The notes beneath the pieces were generated by a model, which was not told where the DNA came from, ran no database searches, and saw only the letters and a program-made list of their open reading frames with translations. Shown in pieces: positions 3,268 through 58,692 of a stretch of DNA of 64,000 nt. The stretch lies in the NCBI GenBank assembly GCA_040902505.1, contig JBBDXE010000008.1, positions 116,792 to 180,791 on the forward strand. Direction: 5' to 3'. The first letter of the stretch is position 1. Each line of letters opens with the position of its first letter. The position numbers and the translations under genes were made by a program. Origin of the DNA: Dehalococcoidia bacterium (lineage in GTDB: Bacteria > Chloroflexota > Dehalococcoidia > DSTF01 > JACRBR01).

Positions 3268-4696
3268 GAGCGGCAGCCGCCCGCCGCGCGGAAGGCGGTC
3301 AGAGCACGGTCAGACGATCGTGCTCTTTGTCGCGTTCTTCTCCATTATGCTCCTGCTCGCCGGCTTCGCCATCGACCAGGGCAACTGGCTCAACCACCGC
3401 CGCGATGCCCAGAAGGACGCAGACAGCGCCGCCCGCATCGGCGCCGCGTACCTCGTGACGGCGCTCGAAGACCACAGCATCAGCGGGGCAGAGAGCACCA
3501 ACGCGACCAACCACATCAAGGCCGGTATTGACCGCAACACCGGGCCCGGGTCGCTCGCCGGCGTCACCATTAACGCCGCTACCTGCCCCACGTCCGAAAG
3601 CGGCAACATCCAGAACGTCGCGTCCGTCGAAGTGGTCGCGCACCGCCCGGCGGGAGGTCTCTTCACCGCGCTCTTCAACATTGATGACACGTCCGCTCAG
3701 AATATCGGCGCCCGGGCCACCACATGCGCGGGCACCGCGCAGACCCTGCACGCGCAGAGCATCGAAGGCATCCCGCTGGCCCTTGTGCGCCCGTCTTCTA
3801 CCTTGCTAGGTCAGACTGGCTCTAACCAGTATGCATGCCCACAATCAACGTGCCCCCGGCAGAAGGACTGCTTCGAGAACAGCGCCACCGGCGGCCTCAT
3901 CCTCGGTCGGGAGTGCGTGATCATGTGGTCCGAGGAGGACGACGAGGACTTCGGCGGCCCCCGCAGCCTCTTCCGGGCCGACCCGGACGACGATGACGAG
4001 TGTGAAGACGGCAACAGCGGCCGGAGCGAGATCGAAGACGGCATCGAGGACGGTATCGAGTTCATCTGCACCGTCGTACCGGGCAGTTCCTGCGGCAGCG
4101 GCGTCGCCTACTGCGTCAATGACTACAACAACGATATGTACGACGACGCCATCAGCGCCTTCGAGGAGCGACTGGACCGTGATGATGACTGCTCCGGTGA
4201 CAGCAGTCGGAACATCAGGTTCCGGGCGACCTTTTCCTTTGCGTCGGGAGAGTCGATCCCCAGCGGCAACGTGCCGGAGGGCATGGGAGGCTCCAGCAGC
4301 TCCAACAGCGAGGTCTACGCTCGGCAGGAATGTGACACGCCTCGAACCGTCCTGATGCCGGTCGTCATGGACGACAACGGCAGCGGCCGACAGCGCGTGC
4401 TCGGCTTCGTCCTGGTCTACATTACCGGCTGCTTCCGCCGCGATTTGAGCCTGTCGAACAGCAACTCGCTGAGTAATAACAACGGGCTGTGCAACGTTGA
4501 TGAGGATGACGAGGACATGGAGGTGCGCGGTGTCCCCATCCGTGTGTTCCTGAGCGAGGAAGACTCGATTGGCGGGCTCTGCCCCCTGCGGGTCACGACG
4601 AATACGCCGGGTACCAATACACCGTGCGTCACGTCGTTTTCAGGTAGCAGCTTTATCACCCTGAACGGGGCAGTCACGATCCAGACCACCAGGTAA
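3248..4696 (+). CDS. tadG: TadG-like / Tad N-terminal domain pilus assembly protein with an acidic Cys-rich C-terminal region
   Basis: N-terminus ..RRSEHGQTIVLFVAFFSIMLLLAGFAIDQGNWLNHRRDAQKDADSAARIGAAYL matches the Tad-like N-terminal domain. Start is uncertain: ATG 3248 overlaps the tadE-like stop by 20 nt, and in-frame upstream ATGs exist. Confidence 0.6.
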   Translation: MTLTHSESGSRPPRGRRSEHGQTIVLFVAFFSIMLLLAGFAIDQGNWLNHRRDAQKDADSAARIGAAYLVTALEDHSISGAESTNATNHIKAGIDRNTGPGSLAGVTINAATCPTSESGNIQNVASVEVVAHRPAGGLFTALFNIDDTSAQNIGARATTCAGTAQTLHAQSIEGIPLALVRPSSTLLGQTGSNQYACPQSTCPRQKDCFENSATGGLILGRECVIMWSEEDDEDFGGPRSLFRADPDDDDECEDGNSGRSEIEDGIEDGIEFICTVVPGSSCGSGVAYCVNDYNNDMYDDAISAFEERLDRDDDCSGDSSRNIRFRATFSFASGESIPSGNVPEGMGGSSSSNSEVYARQECDTPRTVLMPVVMDDNGSGRQRVLGFVLVYITGCFRRDLSLSNSNSLSNNNGLCNVDEDDEDMEVRGVPIRVFLSEEDSIGGLCPLRVTTNTPGTNTPCVTSFSGSSFITLNGAVTIQTTR

Positions 4697-34720: not shown

Positions 34721-36075
34721 CCGCCGGGCCCCTCCCTCTCGAAGGCGTCCGCATCGTCGACCTGGCGCAGGTGTTCGCCGGCCCGGCCTGCACCCGAATC
34801 CTCGCCGACCTCGGCGCCGACGTCATCCGCTTCGAGTCACCGAGCCGCCTCGACGTCACCCGCAACCTCATCCTCACCGACAACGACGGCATGGACCACC
34901 CGTGGCACCGCGCGTCCTACTGGGTGCTGCGCAACGCCGGCAAGCGCGAAGTCATGATCAATCTGGCAACGGAACCGGCGCGCGAGATCATCCGAAAGCT
35001 TGTCGCGAACGCCGACGTGGTGGTCGAGAGCTTCACCCCGCGCGTGATGCAGCAGTTCGGCCTCGCGTACGAGCAGCTCCGCGAGATCAAGCCCGACCTC
35101 ATCATGTGTTCGCTCTCCGGCTATGGCCAGGACGGCCCCATGCGCGACTTCGGCGCCTACGGCATGGGGCTGGAGGCCGCGTCAGGTATCTCCTCCATCA
35201 CCGGCTATGCAGGCGGGCCGCCGATCCGCTCCGGCCTCTCCTTCACCGACCCTTACTCCGGCTTCGTCGGCGCTGGCGCCGTGCTGACGGCGCTGCTCTA
35301 CCGAAAGCGCACCGGAAAGGGACAGTACATCGACCTCTCCGAGCAGGAGGCGGCGATCCCCATCATGGGCGCCGCCCTGCTGGAGTACCAGATGAACGCG
35401 CGCCTGCAGCCCCGGAACGGCAACCGCAGCGAGTGGGCCGCCCCCCAGGGCTGCTACCGCTGCGCCGGCGATGACCGCTGGGCGGTGATCTCCTGCTCCG
35501 ACGACGCCGAGTTTGGTCGCCTCGCGCGGGCGATGGGCCACGACGAATGGACGAAGGACGACCGCTTCGCGACCGTCCTTGCGCGGCACCAGCACCACGA
35601 CGCGCTCGATGCCGCCATCACCGGATGGACGTCGCAGCGCGACCACTACGACGTCATGCACACGCTGCAGAAGGCCGGCGTGAAGGCCGCCGCCGTCCTC
35701 GACGGCAAGGAGGCGCTGCTCGACCCGCACCTCCGCGCCCGGGACCACTTCGACACGATCGACCAGCCGATGCTCGGCAAGCGCCCGGTGCAGCGCCACG
35801 TCGCCGCGAAGTTCACGCGGTTCGAGCCGAAAGCCCGCCGCCACGCCCCTCTCCTCGGCGAACACAACGAGGAGGTTCTGCGCGAGATCGGAATGTCCGA
35901 CGCCGAGATCGCGCAGCTCAAGGAAGACAGCGTCATCGCCGACACCCCGCGCATCCCCGTCCCCCCGCAGATCATCTCCATGGCGCTGAAGCTCCCCTAC
36001 GACCGCTACATCGAGGCCGGCATTCTGCAGGCCATCGAGCCCGACTATCGCGAGCAGCTTGGCATCGCCGAATGA
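34717..36075 (+). CDS. CoA-transferase family III (CaiB/BaiF) protein (paralog)
   Basis: LEGVRIVDLAQVFAGPACTRILADLGADVIRFE. ATGA overlap with the upstream gene. The longer ORF from 34225 is rejected. Confidence 0.85.
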   Translation: MTAGPLPLEGVRIVDLAQVFAGPACTRILADLGADVIRFESPSRLDVTRNLILTDNDGMDHPWHRASYWVLRNAGKREVMINLATEPAREIIRKLVANADVVVESFTPRVMQQFGLAYEQLREIKPDLIMCSLSGYGQDGPMRDFGAYGMGLEAASGISSITGYAGGPPIRSGLSFTDPYSGFVGAGAVLTALLYRKRTGKGQYIDLSEQEAAIPIMGAALLEYQMNARLQPRNGNRSEWAAPQGCYRCAGDDRWAVISCSDDAEFGRLARAMGHDEWTKDDRFATVLARHQHHDALDAAITGWTSQRDHYDVMHTLQKAGVKAAAVLDGKEALLDPHLRARDHFDTIDQPMLGKRPVQRHVAAKFTRFEPKARRHAPLLGEHNEEVLREIGMSDAEIAQLKEDSVIADTPRIPVPPQIISMALKLPYDRYIEAGILQAIEPDYREQLGIAE

Positions 36076-36680
36076 CGCCGCGCGGCCACCCGCCCATCGA
36101 CGTCCGTCCCGTCGTCCTCGAAGGCGAACACGTCCGCCTCGAGCCGCTCAGCCGCGAGCATCTCGACGGCATCGAGCGTGCCGGCTCCTTCGAGCAGATT
36201 TGGCGCTGGATGTCGTTGTTCCCGCGTGCACGCGAAGACTTCGAGCGGGTGATCGACGAGGCCCTGCGTCAGCGCGAGGCCGGCCTCAGGTTGGCCTTCG
36301 CCATCATCGAGAAGACCAGCGCCGAAGTCGTCGGCAGCACCAGCTTCGTGGCCATCAGCCCGCGGGACCGCCGGCTGGAGATCGGGAGCACCTGGCTGAC
36401 GCCGCGCGTCCAGCGCACGCCCGTGAACACCGAGTGCAAGTACCTGCTGCTCCGCCACTGCTTCGAGGATCTCGGCTGCCTGCGCGTCGAGCTGAAGGCC
36501 GACGCCCGGAACACGCCGTCACGCAACGCCATCCTCCGCATTGGCGCGAAGGAGGAGGGGACCCTCCGAAAGCATCAGCTGCAGCAGGACGGCGTGCAGC
36601 GCGATTCCGTCTACTTCAGCATCCTCGACGACGAGTGGCCCGACGTGAAGCGCCGCCTCGAGGAGATGCTCCGCCGCTGA
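36072..36680 (+). CDS. GNAT family N-acetyltransferase (RimJ/RimL-like)
   Basis: ATGA overlap with the upstream CoA-transferase. Core ..ECKYLLLRHCFEDLGCLRVELK.DARN..S... is GNAT-like. Confidence 0.7.
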   Translation: MTPRGHPPIDVRPVVLEGEHVRLEPLSREHLDGIERAGSFEQIWRWMSLFPRAREDFERVIDEALRQREAGLRLAFAIIEKTSAEVVGSTSFVAISPRDRRLEIGSTWLTPRVQRTPVNTECKYLLLRHCFEDLGCLRVELKADARNTPSRNAILRIGAKEEGTLRKHQLQQDGVQRDSVYFSILDDEWPDVKRRLEEMLRR

Positions 36681-36690
36681 GTCCGCTACC

Positions 36691-36838
36691 CTAGCAAGGT
36701 GCTGAAAAAGGGGGTACAGGGGGCAGAGCCCCTTGTCGGGGGGCTCCGGGGGGTGTCCCCCCGGATTCACAACCATCCAACTGGGCGGGCGGGTGGGAAC
36801 GTCAACTGTTCCTCTTCGGGTTTTCAGCACCCTGCTAG
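36691..36838. mobile_element. MITE-like element copy 1: 148 bp with 18-bp terminal inverted repeats (CTAGCAAGGTGCTGAAAA ... TTTTCAGCACCCTGCTAG)
   Basis: Near-identical to 55986..56135 (one T-run indel). Internal perfect hairpin ccggggggtgtccccccgg. No coding capacity. Confidence 0.75.
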
Positions 36839-36890
36839 CGGGCGAAGCCGCCACCCGTGGATGGGCGTGCGCTCAACGGAAGGGGCGGGG

Positions 36891-36924
36891 TGCTCACGGC
36901 TCACAGCTCAAGGCTCACGGCTGA
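36891..36924 (+). repeat. Short-period tandem repeat (CTCACGG / CTCACAG)n upstream of the GT4 gene
   Basis: tgctcacggctcacagctcaaggctcacggctga. Confidence 0.6.
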
Positions 36925-36927
36925 ATC

Positions 36928-38229
36928 ATGAAAATCTGCTTCCTGATGTACCAGGGCAACATGTACTCGGGTGGGCAGGGCGTCTACCTCTACTACCTGA
37001 CCCGCGAGCTGGCGCGCTTGGGCCACGAGGTGCACGTCATCGCCGGGCCGCCCTACCCCCGCCTCGATGAGGCAGTCACTGCCCACCACATCACCGACTA
37101 CAGCTACTGGACGTACCACCACTACAAGAAGGACTTCATCTTCAACCGGCCGCCCCTCAGCTACTTCCACCCCGTCAACTTCTACGACTTCATCTCCACC
37201 CGCATCAGCCTCTCCTCGCTGCTGGCGAACTTCAGCGTGCGCGCCTACCTCAAGCTGCGCGAACTGTCCCGCGAGCACCGCTTCGACATCGTCCACGACA
37301 ACCAGACCCTGAGCTACGGCGTCTGGGCCGCCCACGCCACGGGATTCCCCCTCGTCGCCACGATCCACCACCCCCTCTCGTACGACCTGCGCAACGCCCT
37401 CCGCCAGGCCCGCACCGCCTACGAACGCGCCCGCCGCATCCTCTGGTCGCCCTGGATGATGCAGGAGGTCGTCGCCCGCCGCATCGAGCGGATCATCGTC
37501 GTCTCCGAGACCTCGAAGGTCGACGTCATGGACGCCTTCGGCCTCCCCGAGGACCGGATCCGCGTCGTCCACAACGGCATCGACACCGACACCTTTCGCC
37601 CGCTTCCGGACGTGGAGCGCCAGCCGGACAAGCTGCTCTACGTCGGCAACTCGGAGGACCGCAACAAGGGCGCCCGCTACCTCCTCGAGGCGCTGGACAT
37701 CCTCAAGGACGAGCTGGACTTCCGCGTGACCTTCGTGGACAACGAGAAGTGGCAGCTCAAGCTCGCCCCCCGCCTCGTCGACGAGCTGGGCCTGCACTCC
37801 CGCGTGGACTTCACCGGACGCATCACCACCCCCGAACTGGTGCGACACTACAACGAGGCGCGCCTCCTCGTCTCTTCGTCGCTGCACGAGGGCTTCGGCC
37901 TGCCGCTGGCGGAGGCGATGTCCTGCGGCACGCCCGTCATCGGGACGCAGATCGGCGCCTTCCGCGAGATCGTCCGCCACGGCGAAGACGGCTGGCTCGT
38001 CCCCCCCGGAGACTCCCGCGCGCTTGCGGAGGCGATCCGGATGATGTGGAATGACCCATCGTTGCGGGAGCGCCTCGGCGAGGCCGGCCGGCGCCGGATC
38101 CTCGATCGCTTTAGCTGGCGCCGCGCCGCCGAGCAGACGGTCGCCGTCTACGAGGAAGTTGCGCGGCCCCGGCGGAGCGTGCATCGGGCGCCCGCCATCG
38201 CTTCTACAGGTCAGGACCAGGACCGCTAG
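36928..38229 (+). CDS. Glycosyltransferase family 4 (GT-B, RfaB-like)
   Basis: N-terminal MYQGNMYSGGQGVY sugar-donor-loop motif. The C-terminal E-X7-E region (..SSSLHEGFGLPLAEAMSCGTPVIGT..) is typical of GT4. Confidence 0.8.
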   Translation: MKICFLMYQGNMYSGGQGVYLYYLTRELARLGHEVHVIAGPPYPRLDEAVTAHHITDYSYWTYHHYKKDFIFNRPPLSYFHPVNFYDFISTRISLSSLLANFSVRAYLKLRELSREHRFDIVHDNQTLSYGVWAAHATGFPLVATIHHPLSYDLRNALRQARTAYERARRILWSPWMMQEVVARRIERIIVVSETSKVDVMDAFGLPEDRIRVVHNGIDTDTFRPLPDVERQPDKLLYVGNSEDRNKGARYLLEALDILKDELDFRVTFVDNEKWQLKLAPRLVDELGLHSRVDFTGRITTPELVRHYNEARLLVSSSLHEGFGLPLAEAMSCGTPVIGTQIGAFREIVRHGEDGWLVPPGDSRALAEAIRMMWNDPSLRERLGEAGRRRILDRFSWRRAAEQTVAVYEEVARPRRSVHRAPAIASTGQDQDR

Positions 38230-40587: not shown

Positions 40588-40810
40588 TTGTTAGTTCTCA
40601 GTCATCAGTAGCCAGTAGTTCGTGGGACGGGCGCATTGCAGGACTTTCGGAAGCTCGAAGTGTGGCGGAAAGCTCATGAGCTAACCCTGCTCGTGGATCA
40701 GCCGGGTGCTTGCTGACAAAATGACGGCTGAGACACTGACAACTAATGACTGAGGACTGAAGAACTGAGAACTGAAGACTGAAGACTGAGAACTGAAGAC
40801 TCACAACTCC
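40588..40810 (+). repeat. Composite spacer: inverted blocks of ACTGARR heptamers flanking a ~110-bp core
   Basis: The 5' block gttagttctcagtcatcagtag is the reverse-complement orientation of the repeat. The 3' block is gactgaggactgaagaactgagaactgaagactgaagactgagaactgaagact. Confidence 0.6.
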
Positions 40811-42106
40811 ATGAAGCTCGCCTTCATCATGTACCAGGGCAACATGTACTCGGGTGGACAGGGCGTCTACCTGCACTACATCACCCGCGAGCTCGTCCGC
40901 CTCGGCCACGAGGTGCACGTCATCTCCGGACGCCCCTACCCCACCCTCGCCGAGGGCGTCGTCCACCATCGCCTTCACACCTACAGCTTCTGGGCCTTCC
41001 TCAACGGTCGCGACGACCACGCCTACGATCACACCCACAACCCCGCCGAGTTCTTCCACCCCTGGAACTTCTACGAGTTCGCCTCCACCCGCGCCTCCCT
41101 CGCGTCGCTCTTCTTCACCTTCAGCGTCCGCGCCTACCGCAAGCTGGCCGAGCTGGAGGCCGCCGGCGGCCCCTTCGACCTCGTGCACGACAACCAGACC
41201 CTCGGTTACGGCATCCTCGCGATGCGCCAGCTGCGCGGCCGCCCCGTCGTCGCCAGCATCCACCACCCGCTCGCCATCGACCGCGCGAACAACCTCCGCG
41301 AAGCCCGCAGCCTCACCGCCCGCATCACGAAGGAGCTGTGGTTCCCCTGGCGCATGCAGTCCTACGTCGCCAACCGGCTCGACCTCATCCTCACCGGCTC
41401 ACGCAACTCCGCCCACTCCGTCAGCGCCGCCATGGACATCCCCATCGGGCACATTCGCCAGACTCCCTACGGCGTCGACCACGAGGTGATGCGCCCGCTG
41501 CGCGGCGTCCCTCGCGAGCCCGGCACCATCCTCTTCGTCGGCGACTCCGAGGACCGCAACAAGGGCGCGCGCTTCCTCATCGAGGCCTGCGGCCGGCTCG
41601 CGCAGGAGATGGACTTCCGCCTGCTGTTCAAGGACAAGAAGGAGAAGGACATGAAGGTCGTGCCGCCGCTGGTCTGGCAGCACGGCCTCATGCGCAACGT
41701 CGAATACATCGCGCGCGTCTCGACCGATGAGCTGGTGGCGCTGTACAACCGCGCCCAGGTCGTCGTCTCGCCGTCACTCTACGAAGGCTTCGGCCTCCCC
41801 GCCGCCGAGGCCATGGCCTGCGGTACCCCCGTCGTCGCCACCACCGCCGGCGCCTTCCCCGAGTTTATCGAGGACGGCCGCACGGGCATCCTCGTCCCCC
41901 CCGGCGACCCCGCCGCCCTCGCCGCCGCTATCCGCGCGCTCCTCACCGACCCCGAGCGCTGCGAGCGCATGGGGGCCGCCGCCAGCGAGCACATCCGCAC
42001 CAACTTCACCTGGACCCGCACCGCCCACCGCACCCTCGAGGTCTACGACGAAGTCCTCCCCCCGCACCCGCGTGCCACTCGCCCGGTAGTTGGCGGGCGG
42101 CGCTGA
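40811..42106 (+). CDS. Glycosyltransferase family 4 (paralog of 36928..38229)
   Basis: MYQGNMYSGGQGVYLHYITRELVRLGHEVHVI.., nearly identical N-terminal architecture. E-X7-E region present. Confidence 0.8.
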   Translation: MKLAFIMYQGNMYSGGQGVYLHYITRELVRLGHEVHVISGRPYPTLAEGVVHHRLHTYSFWAFLNGRDDHAYDHTHNPAEFFHPWNFYEFASTRASLASLFFTFSVRAYRKLAELEAAGGPFDLVHDNQTLGYGILAMRQLRGRPVVASIHHPLAIDRANNLREARSLTARITKELWFPWRMQSYVANRLDLILTGSRNSAHSVSAAMDIPIGHIRQTPYGVDHEVMRPLRGVPREPGTILFVGDSEDRNKGARFLIEACGRLAQEMDFRLLFKDKKEKDMKVVPPLVWQHGLMRNVEYIARVSTDELVALYNRAQVVVSPSLYEGFGLPAAEAMACGTPVVATTAGAFPEFIEDGRTGILVPPGDPAALAAAIRALLTDPERCERMGAAASEHIRTNFTWTRTAHRTLEVYDEVLPPHPRATRPVVGGRR

Positions 42107-42140
42107 CCGCTGACGGACTGACAGGCTGACAGACTGACGA
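42102..42140 (+). repeat. Short-period tandem repeat (CTGACNG)n, 3' of the second GT4 gene
   Basis: cgctgaccgctgacggactgacaggctgacagactgacg. Confidence 0.7.
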
Positions 42141-51429: not shown

Positions 51430-51466
51430 CTCACTGAAAAACTGAGAACTGAGAACTGAAAACTAG
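51430..51466 (+). repeat. Short-period tandem repeat (ACTGARA)n between convergent genes
   Basis: ctcactgaaaaactgagaactgagaactgaaaactag. Confidence 0.7.
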
Positions 51467-54270: not shown

Positions 54271-54320
54271 CAGTCACCAAAACCGGTAACCGGTCACAAG
54301 TCACCAGCGGCCAGACCGCT
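54271..54320 (+). repeat. Short-period tandem repeat (GTCACCA / GGTAACC)n ending in the stop codon of the substrate-binding-protein gene
   Basis: gtcaccaaaaccggtaaccggtcacaagtcaccagcggccagaccgctag. Confidence 0.65.
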
Positions 54321-55953
54321 AGTCCTCGACCCGCGTCCGCACGTACCACTCCCGTACGCTCGCGAAGCGCGACGACGCAGTGATCAGCAGCGCATCGGCG
54401 AACCCCTGCACGCGCGGCGACTGCGCGTACGTGTACCCCGGCGCGTACAGCGGCAGCGCCGGCACCGCGGCGACGAACGCGTCCTGGAACTCCGCGTACA
54501 GCTCGCGGCGCCGGTCCACCTCCGTCGTCTGCCGCGCGCGCTCCAGCATGTCGTCGATGCTCGTGTCGAAGAGCTTTGCCAGGTTGCGCCCCGGCGGGGC
54601 GATCTGGCTCGAATGCCAGAACGGATAGGGGTCGGGGTCCGGCCCCGGGTCCACCAGCACCAGCGCCGCCTCGAACCGGCGCGGCAGCAGATGCTCGTCG
54701 ATGTACGTCCCAGCGTCCAGTGGCTGCACCGTCACCGACGCGCCGACCGCCCGCCACTGCCGCGCGATCTCCTCGGCGATCGCCACCCGCAGCGGGTCGT
54801 TCGTCGTCGACAGCGTGAACGCCAGCCGCAGCCCCCCGCGGTTGCGCACGCCGTCCTGTCCCCGCGGCCAGCCAGCCTGCTCGAGCGCGCTCGCCGCCTG
54901 CCCCGGACTGAACGACGGCACCTCGACCGGTGTGTACGCCCACGATCCCGGAGGGATGCCCGCCGGCGTGCCCTCACCCCCCGGCGAAAGAGCGACGATC
55001 AGCGCCGTCACGTCGATCGCCCGTTGCAGCGCCCGCCGCACGGTCGGGTCGGCGAAGATCGGCGAGTCGATGTTGAGGTACGCGGCGTTGAACGACATCG
55101 ACGTCAGCCTGTGCAGCGAGAAACCCTCCTCCCCGCCCAGCACGTCCAGCTGTGCCCGCGGCGTCGCCGGGTCGAGCAGCGCACCGTCCGCCGCGCCGTC
55201 GCGCAGCGCCGCCGCCAGCGCGTCACCGTCCGGGTACACCCGGAAGTCCAGCCGCGAGATGCGCGGCGGCCCCAGGTAGTACGTCGGGTTTGCCTCCAGC
55301 CGCACCCCGTCTGACGTCCGTCCCGCGAAGGTGTACGGGCCCGTCCCCACCGGGTCGGCGTTGAACGGGGTGTTCGCCAGCCCGTCCGCATCAAGCCCGT
55401 CGAGCAGGTGTTGGGGCAGGATCCCCACGTTCAGATACGCAAGGAACGGTGCGTACGCCTGCTCCAGCCGGAACTCCACGGTCAGCGGGTCGCGGGCGCG
55501 GATCACGACGCCCTGCATCAGCTGGGCCAGCACCGGGTCGCCCCGGAACTCCGGGTCGGCGATCGCCCCGAACGTGAACACCACGTCGTCCGCCGTAAGG
55601 TCGGCGCCGTCATGCCACGCCACGCCGTCCCGCAGGTGGAAGACGTAGTTGCGCCCGTTGCCCGTGATCTCCCAGCGCTCGGCCAGGTCGGGCTGCGGCA
55701 GCCCGTCCGCCCCCAGGCGCACGAGCCCGCTGAAGATCAACGACGCCAGGTCGGCGTCCGTGGGGTTGCTCTGTGCGAAGAGTGGGTTGATCTGCTCCGC
55801 CGCGCGCGTCACCCCCTCCACGTAGCGGCCGCCGCTTGCCGGCACCGCCTCGCCCTTGGGATTCGACAGCACGAAGTACCAGAAGACCGCGACCGCGGCG
55901 ATCCCAACCACCAGCGCGGCGAAGATCGGCCAGCGGGTCTGCGTCAGCGGCAC
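54319..55953 (-). CDS. ABC transporter substrate-binding protein, family 5 (peptide/nickel, DppA/OppA-like)
   Basis: 544 aa with an N-terminal TM anchor or signal. Conserved SBP_bac_5 regions (..NPTYY.GPP.I..L.FRV..D...). Confidence 0.8.
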   Translation of the reverse strand: MPLTQTRWPIFAALVVGIAAVAVFWYFVLSNPKGEAVPASGGRYVEGVTRAAEQINPLFAQSNPTDADLASLIFSGLVRLGADGLPQPDLAERWEITGNGRNYVFHLRDGVAWHDGADLTADDVVFTFGAIADPEFRGDPVLAQLMQGVVIRARDPLTVEFRLEQAYAPFLAYLNVGILPQHLLDGLDADGLANTPFNADPVGTGPYTFAGRTSDGVRLEANPTYYLGPPRISRLDFRVYPDGDALAAALRDGAADGALLDPATPRAQLDVLGGEEGFSLHRLTSMSFNAAYLNIDSPIFADPTVRRALQRAIDVTALIVALSPGGEGTPAGIPPGSWAYTPVEVPSFSPGQAASALEQAGWPRGQDGVRNRGGLRLAFTLSTTNDPLRVAIAEEIARQWRAVGASVTVQPLDAGTYIDEHLLPRRFEAALVLVDPGPDPDPYPFWHSSQIAPPGRNLAKLFDTSIDDMLERARQTTEVDRRRELYAEFQDAFVAAVPALPLYAPGYTYAQSPRVQGFADALLITASSRFASVREWYVRTRVED

Positions 55954-55985
55954 GGCACCTTCAGCCTCCGAGCGGGCCCCGGAGC

Positions 55986-56135
55986 GCTAGCAAGGTGCTG
56001 AAAAAGGGGGTACAGGGGGCAGAGCCCCTTGTCGGGGGGCTCCGGGGGGTGTCCCCCCGGATTCACAACCATCCAACTGGGCGGGCGGGTGGGAACGTCA
56101 ACTGTTCCTCTTCGGGTTTTTCAGCACCCTGCTAG
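55986..56135. mobile_element. MITE-like element copy 2 (150 bp); its terminal CTAG supplies the TAG stop codon of secG
   Basis: Same TIR pair and internal sequence as copy 1. The last 4 nt (56132-56135) overlap the secG stop at 56132-56134. Lies 33 nt upstream of the start of the substrate-binding-protein gene. Confidence 0.75.
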
Positions 56136-56362
56136 AGCGACGCGCGCACGCCCCAGGCGGAGATGATCAGGAACACGATGGCCAGGACGATCGTCAGCTG
56201 GAAGAGCGTCTTCTCGACGCCTCGGCGGGTCCGGAAGCTCGCGCCTGTCCCGCCGCCCAGCGCTGTGCCGATGCCCGACCCCTTCGCCTGCAGCAACAGC
56301 ACGATCGTCAGCACGATCGAGACGAGGATCTGCGCGATGTTCAGATAGTCTCGGAACTCCAC
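56132..56362 (-). CDS. secG: Preprotein translocase subunit SecG
   Basis: ..EFRDYLNIAQILVSIVLTIVLLLQAKGSGIGTALGGG....RRGVEK.LF..T.. Start is GTG 56362 after GGAGGGG, or ATG 56386. Confidence 0.8.
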   Translation of the reverse strand: MEFRDYLNIAQILVSIVLTIVLLLQAKGSGIGTALGGGTGASFRTRRGVEKTLFQLTIVLAIVFLIISAWGVRASL

Positions 56363-58638: not shown

Positions 58639-58692
58639 GCTCACAGCTCACAGCTCACAGCTTGAGGCTCACGGCTCGGTTCACGGCTCGCC
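58639..58692 (+). repeat. Short-period tandem repeat (CTCACAG / CTCACGG)n
   Basis: gctcacagctcacagctcacagcttgaggctcacggctcggttcacggctcg. Confidence 0.7.

Follow-up and report, generated by a model that had tools for sequence, protein, structure and literature searches.

Two dispersed repeats of about 150 bp in a Dehalococcoidia MAG raise the question of what kind of element they represent and how they came to lie at two sites of the same genome. They are contained in a stretch of 64,000 nt, which was analysed as a whole and is referred to here as the window. A preliminary description had proposed that the repeats are copies of a novel MITE with 18-bp terminal inverted repeats (TIRs), mobilised in trans by a transposase encoded elsewhere. 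In our assessment, both are very probably copies of a non-autonomous MITE that derives from an insertion sequence (IS) of the IS5 family or is parasitic on one, and the MITE reading is thereby upheld. The repeats are small (140-141 bp) and non-coding, carry TIRs and target-site duplications, and are dispersed at unrelated sites, with presence/absence seen for one of them (copy B). Their ends are near-identical to those of IS5-family elements with a DDE transposase, and the duplication is a 4-bp sequence of the YTAR type.

Anatomy, target site and flanking genes of the two copies

The features of the two copies and of the genes around them are as follows.

36072..36680, plus strand: GNAT acetyltransferase gene (Pfam Acetyltransf_3, 65 bits), stop codon 10 nt upstream of copy A
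36691..36694, no strand: left target-site duplication CTAG of copy A, as read from outer 4-mers that are direct repeats across the family
36695..36834, plus strand: MITE copy A, element proper, 140 bp, non-coding (alignment, ORFs, BLASTN, fold)
36695..36708, plus strand: left 14-bp TIR of copy A, CAAGGTGCTGAAAA, a core also found at the ends of full-length IS5-family elements
36716..36736, plus strand: hairpin 1 of copy A, ACAGGGGGC-AGA-GCCCCTTGT, a hairpin present here in all 34 sequence variants
36746..36764, plus strand: hairpin 2 of copy A, CCGGGGGG-TGT-CCCCCCGG (= ccggggggtgtccccccgg; sequence, fold, family comparison)
36821..36834, minus strand: right 14-bp TIR of copy A, reads CAGGGTGCTGAAAA on the minus strand
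36835..36838, no strand: right target-site duplication CTAG of copy A, as read from direct-repeat behaviour in relatives
36928..38229, plus strand: family 4 glycosyltransferase gene, start 89 nt downstream of copy A
54319..55953, minus strand: peptide ABC transporter substrate-binding protein (SBP) gene (Pfam SBP_bac_5, 236 bits), start 33 nt from copy B
55987..55990, no strand: left target-site duplication CTAG of copy B, read as for copy A
55991..56131, plus strand: MITE copy B, element proper, 141 bp, with one T more than copy A in the T-run
55991..56004, plus strand: left 14-bp TIR of copy B
56012..56032, plus strand: hairpin 1 of copy B, identical to copy A
56042..56060, plus strand: hairpin 2 of copy B, identical to copy A
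56118..56131, minus strand: right 14-bp TIR of copy B
56132..56135, no strand: right target-site duplication CTAG of copy B, read as for copy A; 56134-56132 on the minus strand is the TAG stop of secG
56132..56362, minus strand: secG, start codon uncertain (Pfam SecG, 48.6 bits; synteny with locus L179), with the element at its stop codon

In an alignment, copy A (36691-36838, 148 nt) and copy B (55987-56135, 149 nt) were identical except for one T, the extra T of copy B being situated in a T-run, and the identity stopped sharply at the CTAGs, with unrelated 20-nt flanks on each side. The presence of two near-identical copies is thereby confirmed, as is the internal hairpin described earlier (hairpin 2), while the start of copy B, previously placed at 55986, is corrected to 55987. 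A search of the window for the 18-mer CTAGCAAGGTGCTGAAAA and its inverted partner, with one mismatch, gave exactly four matches as compared to none in 100 shuffles, and a sensitive BLASTN search identified no third or degenerate copy in the 64 kb. Two ORFs, 36699..37070 and 55836..56135, have a common peptide only across the repeated DNA and differ outside the repeat. They are spurious read-throughs that arise as artefacts of the repeat, and the absence of coding capacity had been recognised correctly.

Since CTAG is a palindrome, the window alone fits both a duplicated target and an outer part of the TIR, and relatives were needed to tell the two apart. Among 107 elements with paired ends, the outer 4-mers were CTAG/CTAG in 46, and another 14 were bounded by identical non-palindromic direct 4-mers (TTAG in seven, CTAA in five, ATAG and CTAT); inverted outer 4-mers, such as TTAG/CTAA, were found in none of the 107. 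The 4-mers duplicated across the relatives (CTAG, TTAG, CTAA, TTAA) are of the YTAR type, in agreement with MITEPsy1/ISPsy2, and a 4-bp YTAR duplication is that expected of IS5-group elements. The count of 14 direct against no inverted pairs shows that the outer CTAG is a 4-bp target-site duplication and not part of the inverted repeat, which bears out the earlier suggestion that CTAG itself could be the target. With CTAG as duplicated target, the TIR is 14 bp long and the element proper covers 36695-36834 and 55991-56131. The inverted repeat with a single mismatch thus stands (CAAGGTGCTGAAAA / CAGGGTGCTGAAAA; consensus CA(A/G)GGTGCTGAAAA), but the 18 bp first ascribed to it divide into a 14-bp TIR and the 4-bp CTAG duplication.

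An empty site for copy B was identified in the Chloroflexota MAG GCA_030774575.1 (L179), where the gene order LemA - M48 peptidase - SecG - SBP is the same as in the window and the SBP is 66% identical to that of the window. The end of secG in this MAG (...TCCTAGCGC / ...GTCTCCTAGCGC) contains a single CTAG, which includes the stop codon; the element is absent and a spacer of 52 nt leads to the SBP gene, while the window reads ...TCGCTCTAG[element]CTAGCGC... at the secG stop. After removal of the element and one CTAG, the window aligns through the secG-stop site of this genome, which, as a distant relative and not a sister strain, provides an empty site for copy B and supports the MITE reading for this copy. 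The single CTAG in the relative indicates that copy B landed on the secG stop codon and that the duplication regenerated the stop. For copy A, the gene order on the upstream side of the glycosyltransferase is not conserved, the neighbours there being different in relatives, and no empty site was obtained.

Copy A is preceded by the GNAT gene and followed by the glycosyltransferase gene, both on the plus strand, and copy B is preceded by secG and followed by the SBP gene, both on the minus strand; the two copies have opposite orientations relative to local transcription. An end flush with a stop codon, which had been claimed for both, is a property of copy B, where the secG TAG falls within the right CTAG, and not of copy A, which begins 10 nt past the GNAT TGA (36678-36680). 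CTAG is fourfold depleted in the window, with 43 sites observed as compared to 188 expected from base composition, and among the sites left, several fall on TAG stops (e.g., 38226, 54319, 57364). The scarcity of CTAG and the location of several of its sites in TAG stops explain the association of the element with gene ends, and the overlap of CTAG with TAG explains why it adjoins the stop codon of secG.

Other repeats were also observed in the window, of which the plus strand (1-64000) has 67.9% G+C overall and a strong strand asymmetry (37.7% C vs. 30.2% G). Intergenic microsatellites with a period of 7 or 8 are located at 1190-1220, 14917-14975, 36892-36922, 40728-40808, 42110-42138, 51440-51464 and 58639-58689. 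Their units contain TGA or its complement TCA (e.g., CTGACAGA, ACTGAAG, GCTCACA), so that with such a period stop codons arise in all three frames. Two of them, made up of heptamers, stop a few nt short of the ATG of a family 4 glycosyltransferase gene (36928 and ~40812). The two genes are paralogues 3.9 kb apart, with 77% DNA identity across their 5' ends (36927-37122 and 40810-41005). A tandem array of 268-bp units that are 84% identical is located at 1901-2804, with two more diverged copies of a 52-nt core in which, judged by eye, the conserved N-terminal part of small pilin genes of the Flp type may be recognised.

Ends shared with IS5-family insertion sequences

A search for the ends, in the form CTAGCARGGTGCTGAAAA, in a collection of species-representative genomes recovered at least 120 loci from Acidobacteriota, Actinomycetota, Chloroflexota, Planctomycetota, Pseudomonadota, Myxococcota, Nitrospirota, Gemmatimonadota, Verrucomicrobiota and others. 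Pairing of plus- and minus-strand ends yielded two size classes which, among the matches listed, comprised about 30 short elements of 75-250 bp and 15 long elements of 1.27-1.4 kb with one ORF of ~380 aa each. ORFs of the long elements scored 283.6 and 221.2 bits on the NCBIfam model NF033581 "IS5 family transposase" (cutoff 140), and the domains identified in the ~380-aa ORF are Pfam DUF772 and DDE_Tnp_1. Identity among the transposases of the different full-length elements amounts to only ~46-61%, while the 14 terminal bases are nearly invariant among these elements, with no conservation further in. On sequence comparison, the ends of the repeats in the window are those of autonomous IS5-family elements, and the full-length IS with the same TIRs that the preliminary description had proposed to look for has thus been found, in other genomes. 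No IS5-type transposase was detected by tblastn in the 64-kb window or in the metagenome loci that carry the MITE. Autonomous elements with the same ends were identified in Chloroflexota and Dehalococcoidia MAGs (L053, L012), which makes a partner IS plausible in the lineage of the window.

These observations are consistent with a mechanism in which an NF033581-type DDE transposase (DUF772 + DDE_Tnp_1, ~380 aa), encoded elsewhere in the genome, would bind both 14-bp ends. The transposase would move the 140-bp element and cut the target, a YTAR tetranucleotide (CTAG in this case), with a stagger of 4 nt, and repair of the cut would leave the tetranucleotide duplicated on both sides. In a genome with 68% G+C, in which CTAG is depleted and in several cases falls on a TAG stop, insertion at gene ends would be likely, and it would be harmless since the duplication regenerates the stop, as at secG. 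Insertions are presumably tolerated because they lie between genes and the stop codon is restored, and the difference of a single homopolymer indel between copies A and B points to recent transposition. Mobilisation in trans by a transposase encoded outside the window, as previously proposed, is thus the probable route, with a partner IS that would reside in the same genome and possibly with a role for the conserved internal hairpins.

The wider family, internal hairpins and alternative explanations

A large family of related elements was recovered in a scan of metagenomes anchored on the left end and hairpin 2, by which hairpin 2 was fixed in the search pattern. In total, 50 loci were identified, about half of them from the metagenome Ga0214472, and most contain a related element of ~149 bp at a different site with its own flanking 4-mer pair. 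The window element is ~55-65% identical to its relatives overall, with the two-hairpin left arm kept. A sub-group with the right half of the window element (CTGGGCGGGYGGGTGGGA) includes L147, L168, L163 and L132 and is ~57-65% identical to it where measured, and the nearest relatives found are L147 and L168, with ~65% overall identity. A covariance model of the left arm, applied to the window and 99 genome loci, identified the window copies and the Chloroflexota/Dehalococcoidia loci L095, L011, L066 and L013; the only match outside the Chloroflexota was a weak one of 24.6 bits in the alphaproteobacterium Lichenicoccus (L049). The short elements of other phyla have the same ends and unrelated cores.

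Related and unrelated repeats were observed at several of these loci. A MITE of ~159 bp with the same IS5-type ends is present in three Tepidiformaceae MAG chromosomes (L087 6034-6192, L101 1216-1374, L120 4644-4801), at different insertion sites and with a core unrelated to that of the window element. In L140 (minus strand, ~308 bp spanning a match at 4012-4075), a tandem pair of related MITEs is parted by a repeat of the flank TCCGGGAAGA, a local duplication of element and flank. A 13-nt unit, GACCGGACGCCAG, is repeated about eight times directly after the MITE copy in the Dehalococcoidia MAG L095 (5174-5280). A near-perfect 60-nt palindrome in L157 (360-420; CCCAGATACCTCTCACCCCCTCTCCC...GGGAGAGGGGGTGAGAGGTATCTGGG), which is unrelated to the TIRs, is similar to the third hairpin found in some variants of the MITE and was the source of a spurious mir-3179 match.

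The predicted fold of copy A has an energy of -82.2 kcal/mol, with z-scores of -5.4 and -5.7 on the two strands as compared to shuffles. Per-sequence folds retained hairpin 1 in all 34 sequence variants, with an outer pair that switches among C-G, G-C and A-T, and in one variant class the inner stem is replaced on both sides (AGAGGGGC/GCCCCTCT vs. GTCCCGAC/GTCGGGAT). The replacement, a palindromic unit GTCCCGAC-N2-4-GTCGGGAT in the place of hairpin 1, was identified in L133, L153, L126, L130, L135, L136, L138 and L141. The same GTCCCGAC..GTCGGGAT unit is also located near the right end in L133 and L153, and the swap in hairpin 1 may for this reason be an exchanged module rather than a stepwise compensation. 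RNAalifold on a MAFFT alignment yielded a weak covariation term of -0.93 kcal/mol, which is attributed to misalignment of the variants with swapped stems. Retention of hairpin 1 suggests a constraint on structure, a suggestion that is weakened by the possible module exchange, by a search pattern that fixed hairpin 2 and by the small covariation term. A permissive Rfam search matched Clostridiales-2 (RF02937) at 26.2 bits as compared to a gathering score of 58.6, and this candidate was rejected, since the match was absent from 14 loci in which other members of the family are present. Scans of both sites identified no promoter-like or terminator-like sites at either copy, and no orientation bias relative to flanking ORFs was seen among 23 family members (7/6/5/5), as classified by crude ORF calls that misassigned copy A.

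The structural data bear on an alternative in which the element would chiefly be a structured RNA or DNA module of use to the host, for example by stabilising mRNA, by insulating neighbouring cistrons or as a small RNA, with the IS5-type ends as its means of dispersal. Such a reading would account for a fold far better than that of shuffles on both strands and for a hairpin 1 that persists through whole stem replacement and outer-pair switches. It would also fit a left arm that is kept despite the low overall identity and that, among the 100 sources searched with the model, is confined to Chloroflexota loci apart from the weak Lichenicoccus match. Against it stand the lack of an Rfam family, with Clostridiales-2 below its gathering score, the lack of promoter-like or terminator-like sites, and the opposite orientations of the two window copies to transcription together with the lack of bias among the 23 members. 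In addition, the invariance of hairpin 2 was imposed by the search pattern, and a mobile palindrome may have been exchanged in the stem swap, as the same unit is also present near the right end of L133 and L153. We consider this explanation unlikely. Similarly, it is doubtful that the MITE carries, in its two-hairpin left arm (hairpin 1 and hairpin 2, GGGGG-TGT-CCCCC), a functional module under selection, and a function beyond selfish mobility is possible but unsupported. If such a module did exist, it could for example be an accessory site for the transposase, a stabiliser of mRNA ends or an insulator between secG and the downstream ABC-transporter gene, and a regulatory structure would then be carried through the genomes of Dehalococcoidia by this family.

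A second alternative is a REP/BIME palindrome moved by a RAYT (IS200/IS605-like Y1), or a derivative of IS630/Tc1-mariner. The intergenic location and the richness in G+C palindromes are shared with the former, and the latter has CTAG as its classic target, of which only the TA is duplicated. However, elements with these ends encode a DDE transposase of the IS5 family and not a RAYT or IS630 transposase, and non-palindromic 4-mers are duplicated whole (TTAG..TTAG, CTAA..CTAA), which fits a duplication of 4 bp and not of TA only. With IS5-family DDE ends and a 4-bp duplication, the repeats were not assigned to REP/BIME, and we regard both versions of this explanation as highly improbable.

A segmental duplication, a product of gene conversion or an artefact of MAG assembly has a negligible probability and is effectively refuted: only two copies are present in the window, the source is a MAG and the Logan assembly of SRR27977660 (a 5.6-kb contig, L178 1-25, SRR27977660_8552) ends 25 nt inside copy B, but the identity ends exactly at the CTAGs between unrelated flanks, as already argued in the preliminary description, the same contig, an independent short-read assembly of the same population, reproduces the junction between copy B and its flank base for base, and the TIR, the 4-bp duplication and the hairpins recur at dozens of unrelated sites in other assemblies. 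The contig break inside copy B is the behaviour expected of a repeat, a site at which assemblers struggle.

As IS5-related MITEs, the two repeats have practical consequences. The element should be masked in annotation so that the spurious ORFs go uncalled, and the repeat breaks short-read assemblies of Dehalococcoidia. A single 14-bp end is common to IS5-family elements across more than 10 phyla, despite their divergent transposases, and has given rise to unrelated MITEs repeatedly, which offers a handle for cataloguing such elements in uncultured lineages. In populations of Chloroflexota, the family could also provide markers at the strain level. These results leave the present picture of how MITEs work as it is.

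Comparison with known systems

The closest described example is MITEPsy1 from Pseudomonas syringae pv. phaseolicola, a 100-nt element that derives from ISPsy2 of the IS5 family and depends on an IS5-family transposase in trans; its insertion duplicates 4 nt at CTAG or YTAA, and its transposition has been captured experimentally (PMC3189936). By analogy, the window element probably works like these IS5-derived MITEs. Both elements are small and non-coding, with closely similar TIRs (GGAAGGT-CTGAAAAAGCC in MITEPsy1 vs. GCAAGGTGCTGAAAAAGGG in the window). They differ in length (100 nt vs. 140 nt), in the two-hairpin left arm, which MITEPsy1 lacks, and in the gammaproteobacterial host of the latter. 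Well conserved copies of MITEPsy1 (>97% identity) are found only in certain P. syringae pathovars (PMC3189936), whereas the window family is spread through Chloroflexota metagenomes. Compared by the published 18-nt TIR only, the two have no common core and were not placed in one sequence family.

The nearest annotated relatives of the transposases in a plasmid collection are ISAzs10 (Azospirillum sp. B510) and ISMch8 (Methylorubrum extorquens CM4), whose transposases are ~60% identical to those of the full-length elements with exactly the ends of the window element. Their ends are related to those in the window (CAGGCCGCGGAAAA, CAGGACGCGGAAAA, CAGGCTGTTGAAGA), and ISAzs10 has a 4-bp TTAG..TTAG duplication. 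In contrast to the window element, both are autonomous and 1.3-1.5 kb long; their ends differ from CAGGGTGCTGAAAA at 3 of 14 positions, and they are absent from the window.

Correia elements target TA. Like the window element, the Correia/NEMIS, RUP, ERIC and QMITE repeats are short and intergenic, with TIRs, target duplications and a strong predicted RNA structure (PMC10969869), but their parent IS families and targets are different and their sequences unrelated.

The novelty claimed for the repeat holds for this particular family and not for its kind, since IS5-derived MITEs with a 4-nt CTAG/YTAA duplication have already been described and are mobile (PMC3189936). The literature searched contained no description of MITEs in Dehalococcoidia, and a search for the TIR string returned coincidental primers only. 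Among IS5-derived MITEs, a known kind of element, the repeat in the window constitutes a new family.
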